In this document: positions 6,284 through 27,998 of the stretch, in pieces
How the letters are laid out: each line of letters starts with the position of its first letter
How positions within the stretch are numbered: position 1 is the first letter of the stretch
DNA from: an uncultured Bacteroidales bacterium
GTDB taxonomy: Bacteria > Bacteroidota > Bacteroidia > Bacteroidales > UBA10428
Reading direction: 5' to 3'
DNA length: 64,000 nucleotides
NCBI GenBank assembly: GCA_963717995.1
Contig: CAVQXX010000006.1
Span: forward strand, 102,357-166,356
Made by a program: the position numbers and the translations under genes
The notes under the pieces: model-generated
Told to the model about the DNA's origin: nothing
The model's database searches: none
Seen by the model: only the letters and a program-made list of their open reading frames with translations

Positions 6284-7987
6284 ATGGCTATGAACCTGAA
6301 TCAAATATTTCCTCCTCTCCTTTGGATAAAGCATTATTCCCCCGTTTTTCTCCGAAGTGACATCATTGCGGGAATTACACTGGCTGCCTATGGTATGCCC
6401 GTTTCAATGGCCTATGCCAGCCTGGCCGGTCTTCCTGTGCAGTGTGGAATTTATGGGTACCTGATCGGCGGTCTCTTTTATGCCCTGTTTGGAACGGGAA
6501 GGCAGCTGGCCATAGGTCCTACGTCCGCCATATCACTGCTGATTGGTTCTTCATTGGCCACTATGGCCAGCGGCGATATTCAGCATTGGATGGATCTGGC
6601 CTCGCTCACTGCGCTGGTTATGGCATTATTCAGCCTGGCTGCCTTTCTCCTGCGATTAAGCAGCATTATCAATTTTATCAGTGAATCTGTGTTAATGGGG
6701 TTTAAGGCAGGCGCCGCCCTGACTATTGCCCTTACACAGATCCCTAAATTGCTGGGTATCCATGGTGGAGGGACCGGTTTCTTTGAACGTGCAGGAATTA
6801 TTATAAGCCAGATTCCGGAAACAAACGTGACTGTATTCCTGTTTGGTCTGGCCGGCATGGCATTATTGATCGCGGGAGCCAGGGTTCTGCCGGGGCGGCC
6901 TGTTGCCATCCTGCTTGTGGCAGGTTCAATTATTCTGATGTATTTTATTAACTCTGAGGGTGCCGGTTTTTCCCTGACGGGTCCTGTACCCCCGGGTTTG
7001 CCCACCCTGCATTTCCCATCCCCTGTCAGGCATGACCTGGAGCAGGTAATACCCCTGGCTTTTGCCTGCTTCCTGCTTGCCTATATCGAAAGTGTTTCAG
7101 CTGCCAGAACACTTGCTTCAAAAGAAGGCTATGAAATTGACACAAGGCAGGAATTGCTTGCCCTGGCTGTTGCCAATGCAACTGTGGCATTTGGTCACAG
7201 TTATCCCGTTACGGGGGGCCTGTCCCAGTCTGCCGTGAATAGCAAGGCCGGGGCGAAAACCCCGTTATCGCTTGTATTTGCATCTGTCACGATCGGCCTG
7301 TGCCTGATCTTCCTTACTGGACCCATCAGATATCTTCCGGATGTTATGCTGGCAGCCATTGTGCTGGTAGCTATCAGCGGACTTGTAGATATAGCCGGCA
7401 TGAAACATTTGTGGAAGGTAAGCCGCGTTGAATTTGTCGTGGCCATGATTGCCCTTGCCGGTGTGATTGGGTTGGGTATCCTGCGGGGAGTTATCCTTGC
7501 AGCCGTATCCTCCATCGTATTGCTGTTAAGGGCAATTGCCTCACCCTATGTGGCCTTCCTGGGAAAAATTCCCGGAACTGTCAGATATACCGATATAAAC
7601 AGACATCCGGATAATGAAGTGATCCCAGGGTTCCTTATCCTCCGGGTAGAATCCTCGATATTATATTTCAATGCTGAAAATATCAGGAAGGCAATCCTGG
7701 CTAAAATTCTCGAGTCGGAAGTAAGCATTCATTGTGTAGTGTGGGACCTCAGTTCCACTCCCCATGTTGATATCACAGGTGCCCGCCTGATAAAAAAACT
7801 TTATCTCGATCTTAGTAACCAGGGCATTGAGCTCAAAATAGCCGAAGCCCATGCCGGGGTTCGCGACATATTACGGGCCGAAGAACTCGAAGAGCTGACC
7901 GGTCATATCAGCCGGAAAGTTTCAGTCAATGACCTTGTGATAATAACCACTGGAAAAGACAAGGATGAGAATGTATCAAAAGAATAA
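6284..7987 (+). CDS. SulP family inorganic anion transporter with C-terminal STAS domain
   Basis: 567 aa with SulP-type TM core (AGITLAAYGMPVSMAYASLAGLP, GLSQSAVNSKAGAKTP) and a STAS-like tail (ILRVESSILYFNAENI...VVWDLSSTPHVDITGARLI). Confidence 0.9.
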   Translation: MAMNLNQIFPPLLWIKHYSPVFLRSDIIAGITLAAYGMPVSMAYASLAGLPVQCGIYGYLIGGLFYALFGTGRQLAIGPTSAISLLIGSSLATMASGDIQHWMDLASLTALVMALFSLAAFLLRLSSIINFISESVLMGFKAGAALTIALTQIPKLLGIHGGGTGFFERAGIIISQIPETNVTVFLFGLAGMALLIAGARVLPGRPVAILLVAGSIILMYFINSEGAGFSLTGPVPPGLPTLHFPSPVRHDLEQVIPLAFACFLLAYIESVSAARTLASKEGYEIDTRQELLALAVANATVAFGHSYPVTGGLSQSAVNSKAGAKTPLSLVFASVTIGLCLIFLTGPIRYLPDVMLAAIVLVAISGLVDIAGMKHLWKVSRVEFVVAMIALAGVIGLGILRGVILAAVSSIVLLLRAIASPYVAFLGKIPGTVRYTDINRHPDNEVIPGFLILRVESSILYFNAENIRKAILAKILESEVSIHCVVWDLSSTPHVDITGARLIKKLYLDLSNQGIELKIAEAHAGVRDILRAEELEELTGHISRKVSVNDLVIITTGKDKDENVSKE

Positions 7988-9902: not shown

Positions 9903-11225
9903 TTAAAAATTCACCATAAAATCAATATGAAAAATGCTTCCTGTATTTCCAACCTGGTATGGAAGTGATAATCCTCCTACAGGGCTTTCATCCTGATATA
10001 TGTATTCCGCATTCAGCCGGACAACCTGATTTTTCCAAGGGAATAGATTTAACCCGGCGCGAAATTCATCGGGATCCCCATATTCCCCGAATATCTTTGA
10101 ATAAGTAATATAAAGTTGCAGCAAAGAGTGAAGCATCATTCCCGATCCCTGAAACTGGAATCCGTGATCCAATAAATGATCAAATTGCAGTAGTTCCGTT
10201 CCAGCTCCTGATAAATGGTCAATCCTACGAAAATAATATTCCGCTTCTGCAGCAAATCCTTTATATTTCACTCCTCCATCAAGTCCTGCCATTTGATAGG
10301 TTGCGTTTTCAACTTGAATTCCATTTCCAAATAAATCGGGGGCGAAAATAACGCTTCCATCCGAAATGCGTATCTGCACATTTTCAAAAGCATCCGTTTT
10401 GGGTTGTCCCTGGCGGTCTTCATTACTTCGTGTATAGTGAATTCCCACCCTTGTAGCAACTTTCTCGTGGTTTTCAAAATCACCAAAGCTGCCATTTGAC
10501 CCGAATTCACCGGTTGTGGGAAAATAAGTCAGGGCACCTGAAAATGTGTTGAATCCTGCATCCAGTTGTCCGGCATCTACGCCCAATTGACTCAGGTTAT
10601 TTCCGAGCATAAGGTTATAGTTAAGCTTATTAACAATGAGACCCTTAATCCATATGCCCATAGTATAAGACGGCCTGAAAAACTCATCTGCGATTAACCG
10701 GTTGTCGAGTGTCAGCCAGTATGGAAAGCTGCCCTCAGTGCTTCTTACACCAGGTAGGGAGTTCACACCGCCACCCAATAAAAGATGCTTATTGAAATTG
10801 TAGGTGAGGTTTCCGGCTACAACTACTTGCGCTCCAAGTCCCTGGGCCGTATTATTGGTCCATATATAAAAAATATACCGGAATTTAGGATCAAGCAGCC
10901 AGCCGAGAAACTGAATATTTACCTTATTGAGCTGCAAATCCTGCCTCTTGTCAAGTTCGGATGTATTTCCGAAGGAGTTATTGGTACTATCCCTGAGACC
11001 CAATTGATTAAGATATCTTATATAGGAAAATATTTTTATATTCATTTCCCCAAAATCAGTTTTTACCACTTTAAAACCCAGTCCGGGAGAATATTTTCCG
11101 AAATTTTCAACTGATTTATCTGTATGTACCGGTTTGATCAGCGTATCCTTGTGCTGGCCAACGACTGTGCCATTGAGTAACGCAAGGCAAATAAAAGAAA
11201 TGAACCCGTGCAATAGTATTTTCAT
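9903..11225 (-). CDS. putative porin (paralog of 12412-13764)
   Basis: Signal peptide MKILLHGFISFICLALLNGTVVGQ from the ATG at 11225. Shares LMLGNNLSQLG, GDFENHEKVATR and GVKYKG blocks with the 450-aa neighbour. Beta-barrel-like throughout. Confidence 0.6.
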   Translation of the reverse strand: MKILLHGFISFICLALLNGTVVGQHKDTLIKPVHTDKSVENFGKYSPGLGFKVVKTDFGEMNIKIFSYIRYLNQLGLRDSTNNSFGNTSELDKRQDLQLNKVNIQFLGWLLDPKFRYIFYIWTNNTAQGLGAQVVVAGNLTYNFNKHLLLGGGVNSLPGVRSTEGSFPYWLTLDNRLIADEFFRPSYTMGIWIKGLIVNKLNYNLMLGNNLSQLGVDAGQLDAGFNTFSGALTYFPTTGEFGSNGSFGDFENHEKVATRVGIHYTRSNEDRQGQPKTDAFENVQIRISDGSVIFAPDLFGNGIQVENATYQMAGLDGGVKYKGFAAEAEYYFRRIDHLSGAGTELLQFDHLLDHGFQFQGSGMMLHSLLQLYITYSKIFGEYGDPDEFRAGLNLFPWKNQVVRLNAEYIYQDESPVGGLSLPYQVGNTGSIFHIDFMVNF

Positions 11226-14832: not shown

Positions 14833-16047
14833 TTAATTACTGGATTTTCTATAAAAGGCTTGGGAAAATTTATATCTGAAAGAAAACTGGATCTTAAATA
14901 TGTCCGTGCTGAAATCATCACTGAAGTTCTCACGTGTTCCGTATTGCAGTTCCACTCCCATCATGGCATTGGCCGTAGGATAAAACAACAGGTTTCCGCA
15001 GGCATAATCGTCCCCGGTCAAAAGCAGAAGGATCCTGTCCGTCTGAATTGTCTAATGTCTACCATGGAATAACCAATTGAACTGCTGAATTTTTCACTCC
15101 ACTGCTGGTCAAAAAAGGCAACAAGTCCAAATACTGGCAGCGGCACACCGAGTACCGGCTGATCGGGATCTGAGAAATTTTCTTTAATCCCGATATCGGC
15201 AGGTGCATCATTCATATAGTTCTGAATTCCCTCGCCATATACGGCCTGGAATCTTCCCACGAGCGATTTGGTGATGTTAATGTTTGAACTTAGGTTCAGT
15301 CCCCATCCTACCGTTTCGTCACCGAGTTCATAGGCGTCTGCCTGGGTATCTTCCCATGAAATATATCGCAATATTCCGGCGAGCTCAACATATCCAAAAT
15401 TGCCTCCATACCGGTATTCTGCCGACAGATCGGGTATCGGAAACCGGGCCTGAATGCCGGAGAGTTCGATTCGGTCTCCGTAGACTCCCTGGTCACCGCT
15501 GGCACCCGGACGTTCCAGGGCAATGGTCAGCCTTGTGTCTCCCTGGATAGGCATGTACCGTATCTGGATATTCCGGAAAAATACCATTCCGTACCGGTCC
15601 CCAGTATTCCAATGTATTCGGAAATACATCCGCATCCATAAAGGGGCTCCAGTACTGGCCCACACCAAATTTGCCCAATTCGGCGTAGGCATGACGAAGC
15701 CGGAACGTGGTCTGCCCGGCATCCACACCGGTGCCGAAAAGTTCAAACTCAAAGGTTGTTTTCAGTTCACCAAGGGAGGTAGGCAGGTAGCTCTTTACGC
15801 CAAAACGGGTTTGCCTTACACTGAAGTAGGCGTTGCCGTCCGTGCCGAATTCACCTTCATAGGAAGGCAGTTTGGTAGGACGGATCACATCAAACCAGTC
15901 GGGATGGATCTGGTTGGCATTATAACCTGCATCGGTCATAACGAAACCATATACTTCAAACGATTTTTGTTCTGCTGCATCCTGTGCCTGTGCAGTTAAC
16001 ATAAAGATAAACAGGAGTATAAGACTGGTAATATCTTTAATTTTCAT
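14833..16047 (-). pseudogene. porin gene split into three ORFs by frameshifts
   Basis: ORFs 15493-16047 (signal peptide, then ...RLRHAYAELGKFGVGQYWSPF), 15018-15752 and 14833-15021 read as one barrel protein if the frame is corrected near 15589-15597, 15045-15056 and the CCCC run at 15012-15015. A third-frame stretch NSDGQDPSAFDRG bridges the last two ORFs. Confidence 0.7.
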
Positions 16048-16132
16048 GGAGGTAGAGTTATGGGTGAAGTAATTATCAAAATGAGTTAACTATTTACTAT
16101 TGAGTAGTTTTCACCTTAACAAAGAAATCTCT

Positions 16133-16170
16133 AAAAAGTTTCAGCCGGATGACAAACCACCCGGCTGAAA
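16133..16170 (-). terminator. intrinsic terminator after the DUF4136-OMP-DUF4136 operon
   Basis: On the minus strand: TTTCAGCCGG-GTGGTTTGTCAT-CCGGCTGAAA, followed by CTTTTT. It lies 16 nt downstream of the ORF end at 16186. Confidence 0.6.
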
Positions 16171-16185
16171 TGTTAAATCCTGTAT

Positions 16186-16729
16186 TTATATCAGAACCTG
16201 GGAGGATATTTCACAAATATCTGTTTCAACCGCGTAATTTATGTTTTCTTCGCGTTTTTGCGGACTGGCATCCTGATCAATGGTTTTGGTGCCACGACCC
16301 TGCCAAACCAGCTGTTTTTTCGAAGCATCAATCATATCAATGAACAAGGTACCATCAACGTACGTATCATAATTAATAGTGGTGGTTGAAAAGCCTCCGC
16401 CCTTAGCCATAACGGTATCCTGCGCCATAATATCCGCCGGAATTGGTAGCGGTGGCGGTTTGCTGCGTTTGCGTCTTGATTTTTACATCGATCAGAACAT
16501 CAGGGTTATCTGATTTGGTAAAACCTTTGGCAGCCAGTTCTTTTTCCACGGCTGCAATAAGGCGGTTACGGTTGATGTCATCGAGCGGCAAGGCCAGCGC
16601 TTCGGGTGTAAAGGCATACGTTTTATAAGCCGGAAATGTGGCTGTTTTGTCAAAGTCGGAAGACACCTTGATAGAACTGCAGGAGGTTACTCCAACCAGG
16701 ACTAATAAAAGGAAAATAAGTTTTTTCAT
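16186..16729 (-). pseudogene. DUF4136-type lipoprotein, frame-disrupted
   Basis: Lipoprotein signal MKKLIFLLLVLVGVTSCSS. ORF 16403-16729 stops at ...GAGYRYG*. The overlapping ORF 16186-16428 continues with GGGFSTTTINYDTYVDGTLFIDMIDA...LVWQG, the DUF4136 core. A further shift near 16221-16230 would restore a typical tail KQIFVKYPPRF. Confidence 0.65.
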
Positions 16730-16741
16730 AACTGTTTTGGA

Positions 16742-17329
16742 TTAGGGAACGAATACAAATCCGAAGTTGACCGTAAGATATGCCTGCGATGGCAAGTCGC
16801 CTGCTTTAAATCCATAATAATACTTGGCAGCCAGGGTTAGGCCAACTCCTGGAGCGGCCTTGATCAATACACCTACTTCAGGTCTGAGAGTAAAATGCCA
16901 GGCATCCTTTTCAAAAGTATAGGTTGCCATATCCGTATTCTGCAGGGTGTACATGGTACCGATACCCAGCCCGGCATAACCTGATAAATCGGCATCCGGT
17001 TTGAAATAATAATCCGCTGCAGCCAGCATGGGGAAATGATTGCTGTAGCGCCATTGTTTCCCCGAAAGGGTGACGTTTTTGTATTCGTACACATCATCGT
17101 CCATTTCTTCATAGAAGGTATTCCATCCAAATTCAACGCCAACGCCAATATTGGCTGTTGCCAGGTTCCTGTAGTCAAAAGTAAAGCCCCTGAAACTGGT
17201 CTTGCCTATAAAGTCACCCATATCACCCGTGCCAAACCCGATCGAATATTGGAGGGCTGTCAGATTCCGCTGCGGGAAAGCTGAAATGGCAAGTACAGTA
17301 AAAACAATTAGAATAAATATCTTTTTCAT
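16742..17329 (-). CDS. small outer-membrane beta-barrel protein
   Basis: Signal peptide MKKIFILIVFTVLAISAFPQ, alternating Gly/aromatic strands, C-terminal YLTVNFGFVFVP. Confidence 0.65.
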   Translation of the reverse strand: MKKIFILIVFTVLAISAFPQRNLTALQYSIGFGTGDMGDFIGKTSFRGFTFDYRNLATANIGVGVEFGWNTFYEEMDDDVYEYKNVTLSGKQWRYSNHFPMLAAADYYFKPDADLSGYAGLGIGTMYTLQNTDMATYTFEKDAWHFTLRPEVGVLIKAAPGVGLTLAAKYYYGFKAGDLPSQAYLTVNFGFVFVP

Positions 17330-17343
17330 AATCTTGAATATTT

Positions 17344-17979
17344 TTAGTTGGTTTTCAGATACGGTGACTGGTCAAATGCCTTGTCGATGGCTGTGTTTAC
17401 ACGTGTTGCATTATAGGTATTAGTTAACACGCCGTTGATAATGCCACTCCATTGTGTTACAGGATTGCCATTGGCTCCTATTTCGGTCTTATCTATAAGG
17501 TTCATCATCAAGGTTCCCGTTGTATAGGAGGTAACAGCTACCGGAGGATAGTAGGGATAATAACCGCCCCAGCCCCAGCCTGGATAATAGCCACCATACC
17601 ACCAACCCCAGTAATCATACCAGTACGAAATAGTCGTGGTTTCCCATGAAGCAGGCAAAAGCAATAAATCAGCATCTTCCGATGCAAGATCAACACGATC
17701 ATAACCCAGTGCATCCATGTTTTCTGCAATTTTTGAAAGAATAAGGGCTGCAGTAGCATCCGGTATAAAGACCGGTGCATCACCTTCCTGTAAATTGCCG
17801 GTGATCTTGACAATTCTGTCAGGCATGGAATAGGTAGCCTTCGTACCAAATTCATAGGTATCATTATGATACGTTAACACAACGTCAAGTTCTTCAACGT
17901 AGTCAGGCCCGTCCGGGTAACATCCGGACAGCAGTAACGCACTGAAGAAACTTACACAAATCAGGATTTTTCTTTTCAT
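17344..17979 (-). CDS. DUF4136-type lipoprotein with Trp/Tyr/Gly-rich insert
   Basis: Lipobox LLLSGC. Core TTGTLMMNLIDKTE...VTQWSGIINGVL. Insert ISYWYDYWGWWYGGYYPGWGWGGYYPYYPP. Confidence 0.65.
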   Translation of the reverse strand: MKRKILICVSFFSALLLSGCYPDGPDYVEELDVVLTYHNDTYEFGTKATYSMPDRIVKITGNLQEGDAPVFIPDATAALILSKIAENMDALGYDRVDLASEDADLLLLPASWETTTISYWYDYWGWWYGGYYPGWGWGGYYPYYPPVAVTSYTTGTLMMNLIDKTEIGANGNPVTQWSGIINGVLTNTYNATRVNTAIDKAFDQSPYLKTN

Positions 17980-18122
17980 GTTTAATCAGGTTTAAGTAAT
18001 TGAATTAATTAATAGTTTAAAAGTTTGTTCAATCAGGATTTTACATATGTTAATTTCATTCTAGCCGATTCCTAAAACTTATTACAGGTTATTTCATTAA
18101 CAATATCTCAGCCTTAAAGTTC

Positions 18123-18169
18123 CAAATGTACAGTCAATTTAAGTACCGGTAAATAGTACTTTAGTGCTA
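18123..18169 (-). promoter_or_regulatory. operator-promoter copy 1: 7-2-7 palindrome, 23-nt spacer, TAnnTTTG -7 box
   Basis: Minus-strand read: TAGCACTAAAGTACTA (18169-18154), 23 nt, TACATTTG (18130-18123). It lies upstream of the 17979->16186 operon. Confidence 0.6.
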
Positions 18170-18211
18170 AACAATGGACTGTTATTTCATTCGCGAAGAT
18201 AATATTCAAAA

Positions 18212-18967
18212 TTAAAATCTGAATCCCACATTGACAAGATAACGGTATCCAAATTCACCGCTCCGGAAAGATCCGCTCTTCCTTACCCCCTCTCCGTCAA
18301 TGACATAATTATATCCGGGAAATTTTTCCTTCAGTTGATTATTCAATTCCTCGTAAAATGCTTCCGAATCCTCAGGACCAAGGTCATGGTTTTTGGTGGT
18401 TTTCATATCAAAAAACCACAATCCCGGTCCCATGAATACTACATCCAATGTTAATCGTTCCCAGAATACAAACTGGTAACCCAGTTGAACACCGACCAGG
18501 TGCATATTCAGGCTCAACTCACTGATCAGTTCTCCGTTATAATCGCTGAAATTAAGGGTCCATTTATTTTCCCGCTGCAAATAGTTATAGGCGTAATAAG
18601 GACCGAAATATAATCCATGAGGAGCAGCAAATTTATTTTCCTTTGTTAAATAGATCCTGTAGTCAACTGAAAAATTAAATCCCTTGTCCTTATAATTCCT
18701 TTGCAGTTCAATGGAATCATCCACGAAAGGATCAAACTTGGGCATGGCAAACCGGCCGACATTCACCGAAAAAGACTGATCTTTTTTAACCTGCCGCTCA
18801 TATCCGAAGATATTGTTTTTAATGCCAAACAACACCGGATTGGAGAGATTCAGACGAATTGTATTTTTGAAAGCCCGGGAACTGTCAGATTCTTGTGCAT
18901 TACCATCCAGGATGATTAAAAGGCTTGTCAGCAACAGAATGAATTGATATGGAAATCTGGAATTCAA
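18212..18967 (-). CDS. uncharacterised secreted/OM protein, tandem paralog B
   Basis: Signal-like N-terminus ...FILLLTSLLIILDGNAQ. Colinear with the 19001-19786 product by eye (FKNTIRLNLSNP, NYKDKGFNFSVDYR, GYQFVFW, LGPEDSE, GYRYLVNVGFRF). C-terminal Phe. Confidence 0.6.
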   Translation of the reverse strand: MNSRFPYQFILLLTSLLIILDGNAQESDSSRAFKNTIRLNLSNPVLFGIKNNIFGYERQVKKDQSFSVNVGRFAMPKFDPFVDDSIELQRNYKDKGFNFSVDYRIYLTKENKFAAPHGLYFGPYYAYNYLQRENKWTLNFSDYNGELISELSLNMHLVGVQLGYQFVFWERLTLDVVFMGPGLWFFDMKTTKNHDLGPEDSEAFYEELNNQLKEKFPGYNYVIDGEGVRKSGSFRSGEFGYRYLVNVGFRF

Positions 18968-19000
18968 TTTATTTAAGTTGTTGATCTGGTGGTGAACCTC

Positions 19001-19786
19001 TTAAAATCTGAATCCAATATTAAACATATAGCGGTAACCCAATGTATTGGTACGAAAAGAACCTTTCTTTTTAAAACTTCCACCATCGATCACCAGGTCA
19101 GAACCCGGAAATTTATTATTGAGGGCATCATTGATTGTTTCAAAAAGCAAAGATTCATCTTCCGGTGAAAGGGTAGTTGTCAAATTCGCCTCGAGATTGA
19201 AGAACCACATACTGGGTCCCACCAGGATAAGATCCAGGGATACCCGTTTCCAGAAAATAAACTGGTAACCCAACTGAAATCCTATCGAATGCATATTCAT
19301 TTCAAGTTTCGTAGTGGCCTCGCCAACGAAGCTGGATGTATTCAATTCCCAGCTATTCGTACGCTGGAAATAATTGTAGGAATAAAAGGGGCCAATATAC
19401 ACTCCACGGGGGGCCTTATGAAGGTTTTCCTTCATGAGGTAAAAACGATAGTCAAAAGACATATTTAAGCCCTTGTCCTTATAATTTCTGTCAAGTCTAA
19501 GAGAATCGATATCCAAAGGGGAAAATTTCGGGAAGGCAAACCTGCCGAATCCAACTGAAAACGTTTGATAGTCATTTACAACACGCTCATAACCAATCAC
19601 ATTGAACTTTTCTCCAAAAATCAGGGGATTGGTTATGTTGATACGGATTGAATTTTTGAAATTTTTAGAGACCTTAACGGAATCCTTTTCCTGGCTATAA
19701 CCGGGATGTGTTATAATTCCGGAGTAAATTATAAACAGGATGGATATTCTGGTTAATTTCAAGGCAACCGGTTTGTTTTTCATCAT
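19001..19786 (-). CDS. uncharacterised secreted/OM protein, tandem paralog A
   Basis: Start moved to the ATG at 19786 (MMKNKPVALKLTRISILFIIYSG...) because the TTG at 19804 lies inside the predicted -7 box. Shares blocks with 18212-18967 and ends GYRYMFNIGFRF. Confidence 0.6.
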   Translation of the reverse strand: MMKNKPVALKLTRISILFIIYSGIITHPGYSQEKDSVKVSKNFKNSIRINITNPLIFGEKFNVIGYERVVNDYQTFSVGFGRFAFPKFSPLDIDSLRLDRNYKDKGLNMSFDYRFYLMKENLHKAPRGVYIGPFYSYNYFQRTNSWELNTSSFVGEATTKLEMNMHSIGFQLGYQFIFWKRVSLDLILVGPSMWFFNLEANLTTTLSPEDESLLFETINDALNNKFPGSDLVIDGGSFKKKGSFRTNTLGYRYMFNIGFRF

Positions 19787-19801
19787 GAATGGATAGTTAG
19801 T

Positions 19802-19848
19802 CAAATGTACTGCCTAAATAGGAGGAGATAAATAGAACCTTAGTGCTA
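19802..19848 (-). promoter_or_regulatory. operator-promoter copy 2: 7-2-7 palindrome, 23-nt spacer, TAnnTTTG -7 box
   Basis: Minus-strand read: TAGCACTAAGGTTCTA (19848-19833), 23 nt, TACATTTG (19809-19802). The ATG at 19786 follows 16 nt later. Confidence 0.6.
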
Positions 19849-20019
19849 GTAACTTCGGATTAGTAGAGAAAATTATTCGTAAAATTAAATGATAATTATT
19901 AAAAAATATTGAATATCAGCCAGATAAAATTTCATCCTATATCAAAAGTATCAAATTCAATTGTTTTTTCAAAAGGGATTCGCTATTTTCCCCTAAGTAT
20001 TACCAATAATGGGACTTCC

Positions 20020-21693
20020 ATGAAAATTATCTGTAAATTCCCGGGGAGACACGGATTTTTGTCCGCCTTGTTTTCATTTTTTTCACTCTATTGCTGTTTC
20101 CCTTTTATCGCATATGCCCAAAGCAATAGTGATGTAGATCCGGATCTGCAGGAAGTGCAAAAAATGATCGCTCCGGTAAAGTTTGACGGGGAGATTTTAT
20201 TCATGGTCCGTGGCACTACCTCATTTCCCGCAGCTCAACGGGCACAAAGCATTAAGAGAAGGCTCAGGAAGGCGGGGGATAACCCTGCCCTAACAGTGGA
20301 TTCCATTAAGATAATCCCGGAGGGCGAACATTTGCAGGTTTATGTCGGTCGGGAATTCATAATGAATATCTATGAAGGGGATGCAGAGGTAGAGAATCTC
20401 AATATGGTTACTTTTTCCGAACTGGTTAAAAGAAAGATCGGAACAGCCCTGACATTATACCGGTATGCGCGAAGCAAGCCGATCCTGATCAGGAAATCCA
20501 TCCAGGCCCTGGCAGCCATGGCGCTACTGACCCTGATCCTTTTCCTGTTTTTCTGGCTTTTCAGGAAACTGAATGCATTTCTGAAAACCAGGATTGAAGC
20601 AAAAATCAACTCTGTGGAAGATAAATCATTCAAACTGATTCAGTCCACGCAGATATGGAAAGCATTTCACGTGTTATTTAAAACCCTCAGAATTATTATT
20701 GCCATTATCCTGATATCCGTATTCATTAATTATGTTTTAAGTATTTTCCCCTGGACGAATAATGCTGCAACCTTTATCCTGAAATTATTCCTGGATCCAG
20801 TTGCGGCTATTGGCTCCGGAATCTATCATTTCCTGCCCAGCCTGGCTTTCCTCATCGTTATTTTCCTCGCGACAAGGTATTTGCTGAAACTGATCAGGTT
20901 GCTTTTTACCGGTTTATCCCAGGGTGGGATTGTGATCAAGGACTTCGATCCTGACTGGGCCATGCCCACATTTAAAATTTTGCGTATCCTGATTGTCGCT
21001 TTTGCGGTGATTATTGCCTATCCTTACATTCCCGGTTCCGATTCGAGCGCTTTCAAGGGAGTGTCTGTATTTATGGGTCTTTTGTTATCCCTGGGATCTT
21101 CCTCTTTTATTTCCAATGTTATTGCCGGATATTCATTAACCTATCGCCGGGCATTCAAAAAGGGTGACCGGATAGAGGTAAATGAAAAGGTCGGGTTTGT
21201 AGAAGAGCAAAAATTGCTGGTTACCCGGTTGCGCTCAATTAAAAATGAAGAAATCATTGTTCCCAATTCAATGTTGATCAACAGCAGCATTATTAACTAC
21301 AGTATCGGAGCCCGGGGTAAAGGGATCATACTGCATACTGTTGTTGGCATAGGGTATGAGACACCGTGGAGACAGGTGGATGCTATGCTCAGGCTGGCAG
21401 CCGACCGTACCGATGGCATACTGAAGAATCCCCCGCCCTTTGTACTCAAACTGTCCTTGGGAGATTTTGCGGTAAATTATGAAATTAATGCGTTTTGTGC
21501 CGACGTGGACCGGATGCATCTTATTTACAATGCCTTGCACCAGAACATCCTGGATATATTTAATGAAAACAATGTACAGATAATGACTCCTGCATACGAA
21601 GGGGATCCTGCGGAGCCCAAGGTTGTTCCAGAGGAACAGTGGAATGCTCCTGTGAAAAGTAGTGAAAAGAAAGTGATGAGTGATGAGCAATGA
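20020..21693 (+). CDS. mechanosensitive ion channel (MscS family) protein
   Basis: ATG at 20020 gives a signal/TM N-terminus. Several TM helices, then the MscS beta-domain FKKGDRIEVNEKVGFVEEQKLLVTRLRSIKNEEIIVPNSMLINSSIINYS. Confidence 0.85.
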   Translation: MKIICKFPGRHGFLSALFSFFSLYCCFPFIAYAQSNSDVDPDLQEVQKMIAPVKFDGEILFMVRGTTSFPAAQRAQSIKRRLRKAGDNPALTVDSIKIIPEGEHLQVYVGREFIMNIYEGDAEVENLNMVTFSELVKRKIGTALTLYRYARSKPILIRKSIQALAAMALLTLILFLFFWLFRKLNAFLKTRIEAKINSVEDKSFKLIQSTQIWKAFHVLFKTLRIIIAIILISVFINYVLSIFPWTNNAATFILKLFLDPVAAIGSGIYHFLPSLAFLIVIFLATRYLLKLIRLLFTGLSQGGIVIKDFDPDWAMPTFKILRILIVAFAVIIAYPYIPGSDSSAFKGVSVFMGLLLSLGSSSFISNVIAGYSLTYRRAFKKGDRIEVNEKVGFVEEQKLLVTRLRSIKNEEIIVPNSMLINSSIINYSIGARGKGIILHTVVGIGYETPWRQVDAMLRLAADRTDGILKNPPPFVLKLSLGDFAVNYEINAFCADVDRMHLIYNALHQNILDIFNENNVQIMTPAYEGDPAEPKVVPEEQWNAPVKSSEKKVMSDEQ

Positions 21694-21764
21694 GAGATGA
21701 GAGATGAAACCATCGAAAGTTTGCTTATTTTTGTTTGATTGAAGAATTTACTGAATTGCCGTAA

Positions 21765-22850
21765 ATGTCGAGATTTAAACAATATACATATCCTGCCGTT
21801 TTTGTTTTTCTTTTCACGTTTGCTTTAACATGCTCTGCAGAAAGTAAAGTCCGCACGGTTGTCATGTTTTTCTCCTGGAATGTCTCATTACCTGCATTCC
21901 ATAATCCTGAAGCCGTTTCAATCCTGGCAAAATATTGCGGTGCGCCGGTCATTCATTTTGGGGAAATTAAACCAATTAACTCAACCTTCTACCAGCCCTC
22001 ATTTATTAATCTTTATAAAGGGTTTATGGTTGCTGTTTCTATTTTGTTGATTTCTCAAACCTTGTTAATCATGTACCTCGTAAAATTAAACAGTCGGCAG
22101 AAAAAAATTGCCAGGCAGAAAGAGGAGACTGAGCGCATTTACAGAGAGGTAGTGCGCGAGGACAGGTTACTCAAAATGTTTGAATTAACGGCATCCCTTT
22201 CCCATGAGCTTAACCAGCCTCTTACGGCCATATTATATAATGCCCAGGCAGGTAAACGTTTTCTGCAATCCGGTAAGGTGGATATAAAACAGACAGAAGA
22301 AATATTCGATTACATTATTGAAGATGACAAACGGGCCGGTGGAATCATAAGCAGTGTCAGAAGCCTGATGAAACTCGAGGACAGGGAAAAGGAAAATGTA
22401 AGCCTTCGGGTGTTGGTACAGGAGACGCTTGACATATTTCATTCCGAGGCAATCAGGAACAATGTTAGGGTTGAAACGAGCTGTTGTCCCGATCCGGTAT
22501 GGGTTTACGGTGACAAGATACAGCTTCAGCAGGTTTTGCTGAATTTTATGCGGAATGCGATAAATGCCATGGATGGTATACGGCCAGGCAACCGTTTAAT
22601 GGTTGTTATTTTGAGCGCGGACAAAGGTTCGGCAACAATTTCCGTTCATGATTCCGGACCGGGAATCGCCCCGGAAATCAAGGACCGGCTGTTTAAACCT
22701 TTTGTAACGAATAATAAAAAAGGTTTCGGAATCGGCCTGGCACTCAGCCGTTCCATCATTGAGAAACACAATGGTGAGATCTGGGCTTTAAATCTTCCGG
22801 GTGGCGGGGCACAATTTTCATTCAGGTTAAAAATTGCGAAGGATGCCTAA
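21765..22850 (+). CDS. sensor histidine kinase (FixL/DctB-like HisKA plus HATPase_c) with short extracytoplasmic loop
   Basis: H-box SLSHELNQPLTAILYNAQA, N-box LLNFMRNAINAM, G-boxes VHDSGPGI and GFGIGLALSRSI. Two TM segments flank a loop of about 70 aa. Confidence 0.9.
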   Translation: MSRFKQYTYPAVFVFLFTFALTCSAESKVRTVVMFFSWNVSLPAFHNPEAVSILAKYCGAPVIHFGEIKPINSTFYQPSFINLYKGFMVAVSILLISQTLLIMYLVKLNSRQKKIARQKEETERIYREVVREDRLLKMFELTASLSHELNQPLTAILYNAQAGKRFLQSGKVDIKQTEEIFDYIIEDDKRAGGIISSVRSLMKLEDREKENVSLRVLVQETLDIFHSEAIRNNVRVETSCCPDPVWVYGDKIQLQQVLLNFMRNAINAMDGIRPGNRLMVVILSADKGSATISVHDSGPGIAPEIKDRLFKPFVTNNKKGFGIGLALSRSIIEKHNGEIWALNLPGGGAQFSFRLKIAKDA

Positions 22851-23475
22851 TGATTCAGAAACCATATTTGTAATAGATGATGATAGATCCGTAAGAAGAT
22901 CAGTTTCCCTGTTTCTTTCGGCCACCGGATACCAGGTTGAATCATTTGAGAGCGCCGAAGAGTATCTCGAGAGAGAACCATTTACCAGTGCGGGTTGTCT
23001 GATTCTGGATGTGAATCTTGCAGGAAAATCCGGCCTGGAACTGCAAAAAAAGATGGTCATCCTGGAATCTCATCTCCCCATCGTATTTATCACTGGAAGA
23101 GGTAATATTCCCATGAGTGTGGATGCTCTCCGAAACGGGGCAGTTAATTTTCTTGAGAAGCCTTTTAAAGAAGAAGTGCTGATAGAATCAATCAATGAAG
23201 CCTTATCTTTAAGTAAAAAACTACTGGCTGAAAAACAGGAATTTCATCAGGCGCAGAAGCTGATTGAGTCCCTTACGGCAAGGGAACTGGAGGTATTGAA
23301 ATATATCATTACGGGAGTGCTGAATAAACAGATTGCAGGTATGCTGGGCATTGCCGAACACACCGTGAAGCTTCACCGGCACAGCATCTGTGAGAAACTC
23401 GGGGTTAAATCGCTTCCTGAAATTATCCGTATTGCTGATAGGGCGGGAATTGTTGCTGGGGAGAAGAGGCTGTAG
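22843..23475 (+). CDS. NarL/FixJ-family response regulator (REC plus LuxR-type HTH)
   Basis: REC domain (IFVIDDD...CLILDVNLAGKSGLEL...VFITGRGNIPMSVDALRNGAVNFLEKP) plus a GerE/LuxR HTH (LTARELEVLKYIITGVLNKQIAGMLGIAEHTVKLHRHSICEKLG). The ATG overlaps the kinase stop by 8 nt. Confidence 0.9.
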   Translation: MPNDSETIFVIDDDRSVRRSVSLFLSATGYQVESFESAEEYLEREPFTSAGCLILDVNLAGKSGLELQKKMVILESHLPIVFITGRGNIPMSVDALRNGAVNFLEKPFKEEVLIESINEALSLSKKLLAEKQEFHQAQKLIESLTARELEVLKYIITGVLNKQIAGMLGIAEHTVKLHRHSICEKLGVKSLPEIIRIADRAGIVAGEKRL

Positions 23476-23588
23476 TTATCCCACGCTGGCGGGGGCAAGG
23501 GGTGGACTGACGTAATCCTCCCCCTGCACCCTCCGAAGGGGGACATCATCACGGGAATATAACCTCAGCGCCGCAGAACTTCTTGTTC

Positions 23589-23635
23589 TAGCACCAAAGT
23601 ACTATAGATTTGTTTTTTATTATGCCGTAAGTTTG
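23589..23635 (+). promoter_or_regulatory. operator-promoter copy 3: 7-2-7 palindrome, 23-nt spacer, TAnnTTTG -7 box
   Basis: TAGCACCAAAGTACTA (23589-23604), 23 nt, TAAGTTTG (23628-23635). It lies upstream of the orphan receiver gene. Confidence 0.6.
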
Positions 23636-23681
23636 ATCAGGTAAATTGATAATACCCTCAATTTTTGCTAATCCAGGTTTC

Positions 23682-24035
23682 ATGGTTTATTTAATTGATG
23701 ATGACGAATCGGTAAGAAGGGGCTTCAGGCTTTTTCTGAATTCTGCCGGAATCGATCATCAGGCATTTCAAAATGCAGATGAATTTTTAAAAGTATTTAA
23801 ACCCAGGGAAAGGGATTTGCTGGTTCTTGATCTGAATCTTCCGGGAACCAATGGAATCGATTTGTTAAGGACCATTGAAAGTCTTGGTATTCATATATCG
23901 GTTATTGTTGTCACCGCCCATGATGAACCGAAAAGCCGGGAGTTTTGCAAGCATTATGGAGTAAAGGCTTACATGAGGAAGCCGGCAGATGCGGAAGCCC
24001 TCCTGGATATTATCCAGTATGATATGGCCAAATAA
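23682..24035 (+). CDS. single-domain (CheY-like) response regulator receiver
   Basis: MVYLIDDDESVRRG...DLLVLDLNLPGTNGIDLL...VIVVTAHDEPKSREFCKHYGVKAYMRKP, with no output domain. Confidence 0.85.
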   Translation: MVYLIDDDESVRRGFRLFLNSAGIDHQAFQNADEFLKVFKPRERDLLVLDLNLPGTNGIDLLRTIESLGIHISVIVVTAHDEPKSREFCKHYGVKAYMRKPADAEALLDIIQYDMAK

Positions 24036-24077
24036 AGGGTATTTCTGGTGATGGATTGAATAAATCTCCAGTTAAAC

Positions 24078-24293
24078 ATGAAACAAATCAGTATACTGTT
24101 GGAGCAATCGGGCAGTTTTACTTCCCTGATGCTTGAATTTGCATTTGTAATTTGCATTTGTGTCGGTTTTGTTGCCACAGTTGTTCTCCTGCTTCAGTTA
24201 AAAAAGCGGACCTTTACTCACATACACAGAAGAATGAAACTGACTTTTGGGGGATGGCTTGCGCTTGCCCTTGAATTTCAGCTGTCATCTTAG
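24078..24293 (+). CDS. possible small membrane protein (weak)
   Basis: 71-aa ORF with one hydrophobic stretch (FAFVICICVGFVATVVLLLQL). No recognisable family, so it may be non-coding. Confidence 0.2.
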   Translation: MKQISILLEQSGSFTSLMLEFAFVICICVGFVATVVLLLQLKKRTFTHIHRRMKLTFGGWLALALEFQLSS

Positions 24294-24373
24294 ATATGGA
24301 AATGGTAAAAAGTTCTCCTGAAGATAAAACACTGATCAAACAATCCTGATAAAATACCCGAAAAGCATGCAAT

Positions 24374-24772
24374 ATGAGTGAGGAAAAAGACAATCAGGTT
24401 CAGCCTGTGGACAAAAACACGGAACTGGCAAAAGAAAGGACACATGATGCGTTCGAAAGGACGCTGATGGCCTGGATCAGAACCGGCTTGTCGCTAATAG
24501 GTTTTGGCGTTGGCATTATTGAGTTTACTGAAAGAACAGGCGGAGAATCAATATTGAGAAGTTCAAAGGTTGTAGGCCTCCTTTTCATCATCCTGGGTAT
24601 TGCTTCTGTTATACTTGCTATAAAAGACAATAAAATTAACCATGAACGGCTTCTCAGAAATGAAATCCTTTATAACAGGAAATCTTCCCTTGGGATCATG
24701 GTTGGATATGCCCTAATTATCATTGGCATCATTGCCATTATTCATGTAATTTATAATTTCTTTGAAATATGA
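24374..24772 (+). CDS. DUF202 (YidH-like) membrane protein
   Basis: LAKERTHDAFERTLMAWIRTGLSLIGFGVGI is the DUF202 signature; three TM helices. The stop overlaps the next start (ATGA at 24769-24772). Confidence 0.75.
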   Translation: MSEEKDNQVQPVDKNTELAKERTHDAFERTLMAWIRTGLSLIGFGVGIIEFTERTGGESILRSSKVVGLLFIILGIASVILAIKDNKINHERLLRNEILYNRKSSLGIMVGYALIIIGIIAIIHVIYNFFEI

Positions 24773-25626
24773 GCATAAATTTGGAATACGCAGGCAGAGA
24801 TCTGCAGGGAAAATCATTTAAAGGCGCCGATCTGAAATATGCTAATTTTAGCGGTGCTGATCTGCGGAGTGCCGATTTTACAGGTGCCGATCTGACGGGA
24901 GCGGATTTTTCAAAATCCGTAACAGGCATGAAATTATCTTACAAGATCCTGATCTTTATTGGGGCCCTTGTTATTTCCCTATTTTCAGGATATCTTGCCA
25001 TGATGCTTGGGACAACAGTGCAGGGAATGATCAAATCGACAGACTGGCATGAACATTATGCAGGTCTTATTGCCTCGGGTTTCATTGTGATTTTTACAGG
25101 TTTCTCCATGTGGAAAGGTATTTACACGGCCACAAGGAGGGTGCTGCCCATCATGCTCGGGATTCCGTTGGTGACTGGATTATTTATGGTCCTGTCCGGA
25201 TTTGGTACCGGCAGCGGCTCTTTTTATGGATTATATGCCATATTGCTCATGGCTTGTATGTTTACGGTCGGCACTATATCCCGTGCCGCTGCCGGAACAC
25301 TTGCCTCCGGTATCCTGTTTCTCGTTGTGGCTGTGGGAGGCGGGTTATTCGGCCGAACGGTCGGCGGCGGGATTGGAACCGTGGTATTGGCTGTATCCTG
25401 TGCCATCATCAGCAAGCAGGCCCTGAAATTGGAAAATTCACGGTCAATTCTCAAAAAAATAGCCCTTACGATGGGAACCTTTTATGGTACATCCTTCAGG
25501 AAAGCCAACCTCACCCAGGCAAATTTCACTGAAGCTGTCGTGAATAACACAGATTTTTCCAAAGCCGATTTATCCGGGGTCAATTGGACCCATTCAAAAA
25601 AACTCTATACACTTGGAGAAAATTAA
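24769..25626 (+). CDS. pentapeptide-repeat membrane protein (repeat-TM-repeat layout)
   Basis: N-terminal A(D/N)LxG repeats (FKGADLKYANFSGADLRSADFTGADLTGADFSKS), about 5-6 TM helices, then C-terminal repeats (FRKANLTQANFTEAVVNNTDFSKADLSGVNW). Confidence 0.8.
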   Translation: MSINLEYAGRDLQGKSFKGADLKYANFSGADLRSADFTGADLTGADFSKSVTGMKLSYKILIFIGALVISLFSGYLAMMLGTTVQGMIKSTDWHEHYAGLIASGFIVIFTGFSMWKGIYTATRRVLPIMLGIPLVTGLFMVLSGFGTGSGSFYGLYAILLMACMFTVGTISRAAAGTLASGILFLVVAVGGGLFGRTVGGGIGTVVLAVSCAIISKQALKLENSRSILKKIALTMGTFYGTSFRKANLTQANFTEAVVNNTDFSKADLSGVNWTHSKKLYTLGEN

Positions 25627-25670
25627 CCGAAATTTGATTGAAATTTCTAATAACCTAAAACTGACGATTT

Positions 25671-27998
25671 ATGGCATCAAAGGATTTCAAGGGAGTTATG
25701 AAACTCGATGTACGCGATTCGGTACCGGACTGGACACCGTTTATTCCCGCCAGGGCTCCCAAAGACTCACCCAATATTCTGCTGGTTCTTTATGATGATA
25801 CCGGATTGGCAGCCTGGTCACCCTATGGAGGAGGCATCAATATGCCAACGCTGCAAAAACTGGCAGACAGGGGCCTGATGTATTCACAGTGGCACACTGC
25901 AGCGCTTTGTTCACCTACCCGTTCCATGCTGCTTACCGGCCGTAACCATCACCTGAACGGATGCTCCTGCATCACAGAAGGGGCAAACGGATTTCCGGGA
26001 TGGTCGGGCCGCATTCCCGACGCATGCGCAACAATTGGCCAGGTCCTGCAGGACAGCGGATGGAGTACGTTCTGGCTGGGCAAGAACCACAACGTTCCCG
26101 AACAGGATGTCAGTTCCGGGGCAAGCCGTAAAGAATGGCCGCTGCAGAAAGGATTCGATCGTTTCTACGGATTCATAGGCGGGGAAACCAATAACTGGTA
26201 CCCCGACCTGATTGAGGATAATCATTTCATTGAACAGCCCTACGCCCCGGAGGAGGGATATCATCTTTCCAAAGATCTTGCCGATAAGGCTATCGGGATG
26301 ATCCGCGATCAGAAAGCGAGCAATCCCTCCAAGCCCTGGTACATGTGGTTCAATCCTGGTGCCAACCATGCCCCGCATCATGCCCCCGAAGAATACATAA
26401 AAAAATACGCCGGCAAGTTTGATGACGGATATGAAGCTTATCGTGAATGGGTTCTTCCGCGCATGATTGAAAGGGGAGTGCTTCCGAAAGATACCCCGCT
26501 TACTCCGATCAATCCCCTGCCGGAAAATGTGGCCAACCCTGCCGATTTTGTAAGACCCTGGAATACACTTAATGCGGATGAGAAGAAATTGTTCTCGCGC
26601 CTGATGGAAGTATATGCCGGGTTCTCGGAATACACCGATGTGCAGATTGGCCGAATTATTGACTATCTCGAAAGGTCGGGTCAGCTTGATAATACGATGG
26701 TAATTTATGCAGCCGACAATGGCGCGTCCGGCGAAGGAAGCCCCAACGGATCGGTTAATGAAAACAAATTCTTTAATGGGTATCCTGATGAATTATCGGA
26801 AAACCTGAAGCTGATCGACGTGCTGGGCAGTCCGGATACCTATGAGCATTTCCCGACAGGATGGGCAGTTGCCACTTCCGCTCCTTTTAAGATGTTCAAA
26901 CGGTATTCCGAATATGCCGGTGGTACCTGCGACCCGCTGGTTATATCATGGCCTAAAGGAATTAAGGCTAAGGGTGAGGTTCGTGACCAGTATCATCATT
27001 GCAACGATATCGTGCCCACTATCCTGGATATTTGTGGACTGGAAATGCCAAAGGTATACAAGGGAGTCGAGCAATACCCGCTTTCGGGAATTTCTATGAA
27101 ATATTCCTTTGATGCTGCGAAAGCACCTACAAAGAAAAAAACGCAATATTATGCCATGCTGGGCACTCGAGCTATCTGGCAGGATGGGTGGAAGGCAGCT
27201 GCCCTGCATGCCCCGCTGACAAGCAAGGGTCATTTTGATAAAGACGAATGGGAGCTATATCATGTGGATACCGACCGTGCAGAATCAAAAAACCTGGCTG
27301 CCGAACATCCTGAAAAAGTAAAGGAACTGATCAAGGTTTGGTTCGAGGAAGCAGATAAAAACCTGGTTCTGCCGCTCGATGATCGCTCGGCGGTTGAATT
27401 GCTCGCCATTGAAAGACCTGCAGAAGAAGAACCCCGTGAGCGGTATGTTTACTACCCGGGTACTTCACCGGTTCCGGAAGGCGTGGCGGTGAACCTGCGT
27501 GGCCGCTCGTATAAAATTCTGGCTGATGTCGAGATAACGCAAACCGACTGTTCGGGCGTTATTTTTGCCCATGGTTCCCGTTTTGGGGGACATTCCTTAT
27601 TTATTAAGGACAAGAAGCTGCACTACGTTTATAATTTCCTCGGAATCAAACCGGAGCAAAAATTTGTTTCACCTGATCTGAAACCCGGAAAGCATGTCCT
27701 GGGTATGGAGTTTATCCGGGAGAGTGCCGGAAAACACCATGAATCGCTTGGCAAGACAAAACTTTATGTGAATGACAAGGTCGTTGCCGAAGGTCCAATG
27801 AAAACGCAACCAGGCAAATTCACCCTTTCGGGCGACGGGCTCTGTATTGGCTTCGACAGCGGCGATGCAGTCAGCAAGGACTATAAGACCCCCGGTGAAT
27901 TCAAGGGAGGAACCATCCTCGGGGTGGGAATCACCATTGAGAAAACCCAATACCTTGACCTTGAAAAAGAAGCGGCAGGTGCGTTTGCAAGGGATTAA
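25671..27998 (+). CDS. long (AtsA-like) Cys-type arylsulfatase, no signal peptide
   Basis: Sulfatase signature LCSPTRSMLLTGRNHH (Cys codon at 25908-25910), LVLYDDTG and ADNGAS blocks, plus an extra C-terminal domain of about 250 aa. Confidence 0.9.
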   Translation: MASKDFKGVMKLDVRDSVPDWTPFIPARAPKDSPNILLVLYDDTGLAAWSPYGGGINMPTLQKLADRGLMYSQWHTAALCSPTRSMLLTGRNHHLNGCSCITEGANGFPGWSGRIPDACATIGQVLQDSGWSTFWLGKNHNVPEQDVSSGASRKEWPLQKGFDRFYGFIGGETNNWYPDLIEDNHFIEQPYAPEEGYHLSKDLADKAIGMIRDQKASNPSKPWYMWFNPGANHAPHHAPEEYIKKYAGKFDDGYEAYREWVLPRMIERGVLPKDTPLTPINPLPENVANPADFVRPWNTLNADEKKLFSRLMEVYAGFSEYTDVQIGRIIDYLERSGQLDNTMVIYAADNGASGEGSPNGSVNENKFFNGYPDELSENLKLIDVLGSPDTYEHFPTGWAVATSAPFKMFKRYSEYAGGTCDPLVISWPKGIKAKGEVRDQYHHCNDIVPTILDICGLEMPKVYKGVEQYPLSGISMKYSFDAAKAPTKKKTQYYAMLGTRAIWQDGWKAAALHAPLTSKGHFDKDEWELYHVDTDRAESKNLAAEHPEKVKELIKVWFEEADKNLVLPLDDRSAVELLAIERPAEEEPRERYVYYPGTSPVPEGVAVNLRGRSYKILADVEITQTDCSGVIFAHGSRFGGHSLFIKDKKLHYVYNFLGIKPEQKFVSPDLKPGKHVLGMEFIRESAGKHHESLGKTKLYVNDKVVAEGPMKTQPGKFTLSGDGLCIGFDSGDAVSKDYKTPGEFKGGTILGVGITIEKTQYLDLEKEAAGAFARD

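Follow-up and report, generated by a model that had tools for sequence, protein, structure and literature searches.

A conserved 16-bp palindrome phased to Bacteroidota promoters, the probable operator of a StyR/FixJ-type response regulator

The heptamers recognized by NarL of Escherichia coli follow the consensus TACYYMT. A single NarL site in the 7-2-7 arrangement, placed at -44.5 and with 32 bp between its centre and the -10 element, suffices for activation (PMC9314961). In the case of StyR, phosphorylation triggers dimerisation and DNA binding, and occupation of the high-affinity site STY2 (at about -40) by the phosphorylated regulator is essential for activation (PMC2442086). Here, an arrangement to be compared with these systems is described in a 64,000-nucleotide stretch of the genome of an uncultured Bacteroidales bacterium of a freshwater lineage (contig CAVQXX010000006.1), the whole of which is called the window. 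It contains three copies of a 16-bp palindrome, each followed at a fixed distance by a -7 box of the Bacteroidota type. With a probability of about 80%, this palindrome is the operator of the adjacent StyR/FixJ-type response regulator (22843-23475), which would use it for activation.

In promoters of Bacteroides, the TTTG at -33 precedes the -7 box by about 19-21 nt. For the primary sigma factor of the phylum Bacteroidota, the consensus motifs are TAnnTTTG (-7) and TTTG (-33) (PMC7366714, PMC2483708), and a weak -33 element results in a lower promoter activity (PMC2483708). The three putative operators of the window and the promoter elements that follow them are located as listed here.

18154..18169, minus strand: operator 1, TAGCACTAAAGTACTA, a 7-2-7 inverted repeat upstream of the DUF4136 operon
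18150..18153, minus strand: TTTA at the -33 position of promoter 1, a degenerate TTTG 19 nt before the -7 box
18123..18130, minus strand: -7 box of promoter 1, reading TACATTTG and separated from operator 1 by exactly 23 nt
19833..19848, minus strand: operator 2, TAGCACTAAGGTTCTA, upstream of two tandem paralogs, probably of the outer membrane
19832-19829, minus strand: TTTA at the -33 position of promoter 2, directly after operator 2
19802..19809, minus strand: -7 box of promoter 2, reading TACATTTG and separated from operator 2 by 23 nt
23589..23604, plus strand: operator 3, TAGCACCAAAGTACTA, 114 nt past the stop codon of the regulator gene
23605-23608, plus strand: TAGA at the -33 position of promoter 3, directly after operator 3
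23628..23635, plus strand: -7 box of promoter 3, reading TAAGTTTG and separated from operator 3 by 23 nt

The sequences, coordinates and strands of the three palindromes are exactly those given in a preliminary description of this DNA, as are the 23 nt that lead from each of them to TACATTTG, TACATTTG or TAAGTTTG, all matching TAnnTTTG. The palindromes share the 16-bp form TAG[C/T/A]AC[C/T]-A[A/T]-[A/G]GT[A/T]CTA. Each consists of two inverted heptamers with a 2-bp gap, which confirms the 7-2-7 layout described earlier, and the two halves are symmetrically conserved across 52 distinct sites. All three are intergenic and oriented toward a downstream gene. The window has three matches to the palindrome pattern TAGNACNNNNGTNCTA, where dinucleotide-preserving shuffles lead one to expect 0.02; the composite TAGNACNNNNGTNCTA-N23-TANNTTTG also occurs three times, against 0.00 in the shuffles. 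The signal of the window lies in the palindrome and its phasing, because TANNTTTG alone shows no enrichment (50 found, 55 expected). Tolerating two mismatches in the palindrome yields just extra sites without a box, mostly within genes.

A comparison with relatives was anchored on the regulator. The loci were chosen by regulator homology and not by the motif, starting from ten orthologs of 63-96% identity; they comprise the 20-kb loci L001-L006 and L126-L128, together with one locus without DNA. These loci and the window hold 22 perfect palindromes, of which 22 are intergenic. The distance to TAnnTTTG is 23 nt in 21 of them and 24 nt in the remaining one, which comes from a long-read assembly, and none is without a box. 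L128 has an additional site with one mismatch, also with 23-nt spacing. The preliminary description had predicted a motif tied to intergenic DNA and to a fixed spacing, and in the anchored loci it is indeed found neither inside genes nor off its spacing, the single 24-nt case aside. Because the palindromes and their spacing are kept while spacers, upstream flanks and 5' untranslated regions diverge, palindrome and phasing together form a clear phylogenetic footprint.

The linkage to the regulator is equally constant. A site lies shortly downstream of the regulator stop codon in all 10 regulator-anchored loci, and this linkage stays while the surrounding genes change from locus to locus. A regulator ortholog also adjoins the site in at least eight loci found through the motif (L021, L034, L046, L063, L080, L087, L106 and L111); L063 and L106 share contigs with L006 and L005, and so duplicate anchored loci. 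Operator 1 is kept before DUF4136 orthologs in L001, L002, L050, L069, L089 and L105, and operator 2 before orthologs of the tandem paralogs in L001-L005 and L087. Based on this conservation, the palindromes are interpreted as genuine, conserved binding sites, most likely for the neighbouring regulator.

The -7 element TAnnTTTG is matched perfectly at the three window sites and in all relatives. The -33 consensus TTTG is not reached at the window promoters (TTTA, TTTA and TAGA). Across the 52 distinct sites, the four bases after the palindrome read T-W-K-A: the first T is present in 51, a G stands at the fourth position in 2, and a complete TTTG occupies the -33 position in at most 2. The upstream flank of these sites carries no information content, the promoter-distal half of the palindrome favours TAGCAC, and the proximal half favours TAGTAC or TAGAAC on the opposite strand. 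T-W-K-A lies 19 nt upstream of the -7 box, so that the palindrome stops right at a degenerate -33 element; its end meets the start of the -33 position without overlap. The preliminary description was thus correct on the absence of TTTG from copies 1 and 2 (TTTA in both), and its placement of the palindrome in the vacant position has to be given up.

The centre of the palindrome is 31 bp away from the -7 box. Assuming a -7 box at -12 to -5, the palindrome would be centred at about -43.5 and span about -51 to -36. In the class II geometry suggested earlier, the activator site overlaps the upstream promoter element and is centred near -41.5; the site here abuts that element and has an estimated centre of about -43.5. 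The presence of T-W-K-A in place of TTTG beside an operator suggests that these promoters depend on an activator. Start sites are predicted here from the position of the boxes; the public sequencing runs searched for this DNA gave three matching DNA metagenomes and no RNA run.

Some further features were noticed around the sites. A second TAnnTTTG-like box, TAGATTTG (23605-23612, plus strand), directly follows operator 3. It is present in L001 and degenerate in L002 (TAGATTGG), and may be just the TAGA plus chance. Elsewhere, a single palindrome has a TAnnTTTG box on both sides (L007 6464-6541, L009 507-584, L061 ~6090-6167 and L071 ~438-515), at 23 nt, apart from L061 and L071, where one of the two distances is 24 nt. 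All four face genes in both directions; in L007 these are a SHOCT-domain gene one way and a Phenol_MetA_deg outer-membrane channel gene the other way. From their layout, these four appear to be bidirectional promoters using one common operator, an arrangement open to a symmetric dimer.

In several relatives, the gap between the upstream gene and the operator is filled by tandem repeats with a unit of 7-8 nt (GATACTG, CAGAACTG, ATCAGCTT, GATTACC): L087 at ~5020-5150, L091 at ~7510-7640, L005 at 2560-2620 and 10640-10717, L006 at 10830-10875 and L001 at 10715-10750. A remnant is found in the window at 23560-23588. The repeat unit varies between loci, and the upstream gene is either the regulator, ending in its stop codon, or another gene. 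The GC-rich stretch from the regulator stop codon toward site 3 (23476-23560) folds no better than shuffles (z 0.08), and an Rfam scan of 16000-24200 gave no match near a gathering score.

The candidate binder and its presumed partner are encoded by two neighbouring genes.

22843..23475, plus strand: response regulator of the StyR/FixJ subfamily (REC and GerE/LuxR helix-turn-helix), the putative palindrome binder
21765..22850, plus strand: histidine kinase of 361 residues (HisKA and HATPase_c, H-box SHELNQPL), presumably paired with the regulator

In Pfam, the regulator matches Response_reg (9.5e-24) and GerE (2.3e-19), and the alignment shows its DDD acidic pocket and acceptor Asp56 to be conserved. 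Among solved structures, StyR (1yio) comes closest, with E 3.2e-53 over residues 6-200 and about 44-50% identity, followed by FixJ (5xso, E 2.8e-38); NarL is distant (E 1.7e-13). The recognition helix, IAEHTVKLHRHSIC, departs from the IAEVTVKVHRHNIM of StyR at four positions. Eight of the nine orthologs aligned (64-96% identity) share it unchanged, and the sole variant, P0077, belongs to L128, the locus of the one-mismatch site. Orthologs of the regulator are numerous in metagenomes, and public sources label them FixJ-family regulators. The earlier assignment of the palindrome to an adjacent NarL/FixJ-type regulator is supported by the linkage in the anchored loci, by the kinship with StyR and by the core of the StyR box.

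The kinase gene overlaps the start of the regulator gene. Orthologous kinases of 620-642 residues adjoin the regulator in L006 and L126-L128. Orthologs of 620-630 residues carry a periplasmic ABC_sub_bind-like sensor domain, of which ~260 residues are absent from the window kinase. In an alignment with the L006 kinase, residues 1-47 of the window kinase match 1-47, residues 35-62 match 231-257, and the part from residue 70 matches the part from residue 330. The short form is also found in L001, the long form in L002.

Among the other explanations, the one that survives best leaves the operator with this regulator and changes its effect. The regulator would repress, or act both ways, for instance by hindering the polymerase at the -33 region. 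The site directly abuts the -33 position, the second box TAGATTTG (23605-23612) touches the palindrome of site 3, and StyR is itself able to repress from additional sites (PMC2442086). However, a consistently degenerate -33 element fits promoters that need help, and not strong ones that need silencing. The rigid phasing on one face of the DNA, together with the geometry of the activating NarL (-44.5) and StyR (~-40) sites, suggests recruitment, and the site is clear of the -7 box and of the predicted start. Repression is therefore regarded as unlikely.

It is still less probable that another dimeric transcription factor, encoded elsewhere, binds the palindrome, the adjacency of the regulator being conserved synteny only. 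Inverted repeats of 16 bp near -42 are used by other families too, and unrelated GAAC-N4-GTTC boxes of other phyla are among the scan matches. Against this stands the linkage to the regulator in all 10 anchored loci despite changing neighbours, and in L003-L005 sites occur with the regulator nearby and no kinase. StyR, the nearest characterised relative, binds a box of equal length and core. In addition, the helix invariant in 8/9 orthologs varies only in P0077, where the change coincides with the one-mismatch site of L128.

That the palindrome is no protein operator at all is hardly credible in view of the symmetric conservation of both half-sites and of its use in either orientation: an extracytoplasmic function (ECF) sigma composite promoter, a type common in this phylum (PMC7366714), is rejected because the box downstream has the -7 motif of the primary sigma factor and because a gap of 23 nt exceeds what an ECF -35/-10 pair allows; a LexA/SOS box, despite the superficial resemblance of the core GNAC-N4-GTNC to Gram-positive LexA boxes, because the half-sites are mostly GCAC or GTAC and the targets are envelope, receiver and sulfatase genes (the LexA-like boxes of the scan are confined to other phyla among the matches listed); an RNA hairpin, because the 7-2-7 palindrome is unable to form a stable one and Rfam is without a match in 16000-24200; and the end of a mobile or repeat element, because the flanks are not conserved.

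Some points weigh against an activating operator of the StyR/FixJ-type regulator as described above. Activation is preferred to repression only on account of where the site lies and of the weak -33 element. In each half-site, the outer four bases are unlike those of the StyR box (TAGC/TAGT here, ATAA in StyR), and StyR specificity is therefore not simply transferable. An operator belonging to the MscS gene is present in L003, L004 and L087 and lacking in the window. Finally, the kinase has lost most of its sensor domain and two target genes are broken, which may mean that the system is deregulated, or in decay, in this lineage.

The candidate target genes of the three promoters are as follows.

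16139..17979, minus strand: target operon 1, comprising DUF4136, outer-membrane protein (OMP), DUF4136 and a terminator (Pfam, terminator scan)
17979-17344, minus strand: DUF4136 lipoprotein gene (Pfam)
17329-16742, minus strand: OMP beta-barrel (OMP_b-brl) gene (Pfam)
16729-16186, minus strand: second DUF4136 gene, frameshifted (Pfam)
16170-16139, minus strand: strong terminator hairpin at the end of operon 1 (terminator scan)
18212..19786, minus strand: target operon 2, two tandem paralogs (19786-19001 and 18967-18212) with a weak DUF3575-like match
23682..24035, plus strand: stand-alone receiver of 117 residues, acidic pocket and phospho-acceptor Asp intact
24078..27998, plus strand: presumed continuation of operon 3, from short gaps and conserved synteny
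24078-24293, plus strand: truncated DUF1622 gene, probable member of operon 3
24374-24772, plus strand: DUF202 gene, probable member of operon 3
24769-25626, plus strand: pentapeptide-repeat membrane protein gene, probable member of operon 3
25671-27998, plus strand: sulfatase gene (775 residues), probable member of operon 3

The annotations of the preliminary description hold for the DUF4136/OMP/DUF4136 genes with their terminator, the tandem paralogs, the regulator with REC and GerE domains, and the receiver. In operon 1, the second DUF4136 gene is frameshifted after codon 108 and its rest lies in another frame (16428-16186), which is either a pseudogene or an assembly error. The literature found on DUF4136 reports no more than an association with a different, OmpR-type two-component operon in Burkholderia, which is uninformative on its function here. 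The paralogs of operon 2 are 51% identical to each other and probably represent outer-membrane proteins. The start of the first paralog is placed at ATG 19786, because TTG 19804 falls inside the -7 box.

Site 3 very probably drives a receiver-DUF1622-DUF202-pentapeptide-sulfatase operon, since the gene string of the relatives follows in the window with short gaps. The candidate targets are envelope and signalling genes as first described, with the correction that site 3 is not restricted to the receiver and that its operon is likely to reach the sulfatase. Behind the receiver, the relatives usually encode DUF1622, DUF202 and a membrane protein of the pentapeptide-repeat or SBF-like type, and then a sulfatase maturase with one or two sulfatases. 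The DUF1622-DUF202-pentapeptide-sulfatase string is also found behind a site in L005, L002 and L126. In L005 the site stands directly before DUF1622, the receiver being absent there, and in L126 the whole string is under its own site, 6 kb from the regulator. The DUF1622 gene of the window is cut by a stop codon to 71 residues, compared with 127 in L005; the aligned part is 56% identical.

The plus strand of the window also holds an MscS-type channel gene. In L003 (7838-7959), L004 (7940-8059) and L087 (7830-7950), the DUF3575-like gene and the MscS gene have operators that stand back to back, the one of MscS with its own -7 box. This MscS site is missing from the window, L001 and L002. Beyond the end of operon 1, two overlapping open reading frames on the minus strand (15018-15752 and 15493-16047, together 15018-16047) resemble the halves of one frameshifted porin-like outer-membrane protein, the L001 counterpart of which has a DcaP match.

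If the palindrome is the activating operator of the adjacent regulator, the system might work as follows. The adjacent histidine kinase would phosphorylate the regulator, which would then dimerise and occupy the two inverted heptamers. Located at about -51 to -36, the dimer would make up for a deliberately poor -33 element (T-W-K-A) by contacting RNA polymerase, so that the Bacteroidota primary-sigma polymerase would be recruited and transcription turned on. Three promoters would be controlled in this way: that of DUF4136-OMP-DUF4136, that of the two probable outer-membrane paralogs, and that of the receiver operon, which probably extends into DUF1622/DUF202/pentapeptide/sulfatase. The stand-alone receiver, 30% identical to the receiver domain of the regulator, would be induced as well. 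It keeps its acidic pocket and acceptor Asp, and most likely competes for the phosphoryl groups of the same kinase, which would provide negative feedback.

Taken as a whole, the picture is a tentative one, and we would hesitate to expect all of its parts together. The rigid series of operator, invariant T, degenerate -33 element and -7 box at 23 nt, in places mirrored about a single palindrome, would be an activation module specific to the phylum, with a NarL/FixJ-type dimer standing in for the -33 recognition of the unusual primary sigma factor. This module would govern an envelope-plus-sulfatase stimulon that has so far gone unrecognised, with a periplasmic binding-protein-like kinase as its sensor and damping by the induced receiver acting as a phosphate sink.

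The composite pattern, with 16 specified bases, was also scanned in one genome per species. At least 118 stretches with at least 125 matches were obtained, and the regulon size and taxonomic range deduced from them are lower bounds. Among the 125 matches listed, 29 fit the core TAG[ACT]AC[CT]A[AT][AG]GT[AT]CTA, compared with ~1.2% expected. Uncultured Bacteroidales, Lentimicrobiaceae or other metagenome-assembled genomes (MAGs) of Bacteroidota account for 27 of those 29 listed. One MAG among the matches listed has eight core sites, seven of them within about 40 kb. Many of the listed matches represent chance or other systems, like the GAAC-N4-GTTC boxes in Firmicutes and Chloroflexi.

Among the loci compared, the stand-alone receiver is the most frequent first gene behind a site (at least 12 loci), followed by the DUF4136 lipoprotein (10 loci) and by a cluster of the DUF3575-like outer-membrane protein and DUF4251 (9 loci). 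A SHOCT-domain protein is found in 4 loci, an MscS channel and an RND-type membrane-fusion protein in 3 loci each, and DUF1622 in 2 loci. Five further types were seen once each: a Phenol_MetA_deg outer-membrane channel, a glycine-zipper lipoprotein, an Omp85-like protein, a PFL-like enzyme and a serine dehydratase.

Two other patterns were seen in the scan. At L011 (2407-2422) and L080 (4034-4049), the first triplet of the operator is the TAG stop codon of the upstream gene, with no spacer, and this gene ends in a LuxR-type helix-turn-helix. An element of the form TAGTACAAAAGTCCTA-TTCAG...CCCAG-TACATTTG occurs in seven MAGs of Acidobacteriota/Terriglobia among the matches listed (L043, L059, L074, L096, L113, L119 and L120), and may lie in a conserved gene or RNA.

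To our knowledge, few operators have been defined for two-component regulators of Bacteroidota, and the cooperation of activators with the primary sigma factor and the -7/-33 promoters of this phylum has been little studied. In agreement with the preliminary description, neither this operator nor its regulon was found described in the literature searched. The system is a clean case that lends itself to testing: the proposed operator has 16 bp, its phasing is fixed at 23 nt, the -33 element is degenerate, and the structure of a close relative of the candidate regulator has been solved. The regulon recurs in many uncultured Bacteroidales of freshwater, sediment and soil, and the motif can be used for regulon prediction in MAGs. 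It ties DUF4136, DUF3575-like, DUF4251, DUF1622 and DUF202 proteins and sulfatases to a single signal, and could serve as an inducible promoter part for Bacteroidota. No concept of gene regulation is changed by the finding.

Among known systems, StyR/FixJ is a nearer comparison than NarL, judging from the regulator sequence. In StyS/StyR, the regulator is the closest solved relative and has a near-identical recognition helix. The StyR box, taken directly from the plasmid pSTY, is ATAAACCATGGTTTAT and lies between styR and styA, upstream of styA. It resembles TAGCACCAAGGTTCTA here in its 16-bp length, its symmetry and its ACCAWGGT core. As only ACCAWGGT is common to both, the palindrome probably represents an operator with its own specificity, neither a StyR nor a NarL site. 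The kinase here differs from StyS in that it sits in the membrane and has a sensor like periplasmic binding proteins, most of which is deleted in the window. The promoter is of the Bacteroidota -7/-33 type, in contrast to the -10/-35 promoter of StyR, and the targets are envelope and sulfatase genes instead of a catabolic operon. No auxiliary low-affinity sites and no integration host factor (IHF) site like those of the StyR promoter are evident here.

FixJ is the second-best solved relative, and the H-box of its kinase FixL belongs to the same class; here, a haem-PAS oxygen sensor is absent, and the targets have no relation to those of FixL/FixJ. NarL of E. coli likewise uses inverted heptamers with a 2-bp gap, 32 bp from the -10 element compared with 31 bp to the -7 box here, but its heptamer differs from TAG[C/T/A]AC[C/T] and the regulator is only distantly related. 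The system is thus ordinary in kind, a NarL/FixJ-family regulator on a 7-2-7 inverted repeat just upstream of a core promoter. New are its specificity, its regulon, its host clade and the very clean phasing with a Bacteroidota -7/-33 promoter.

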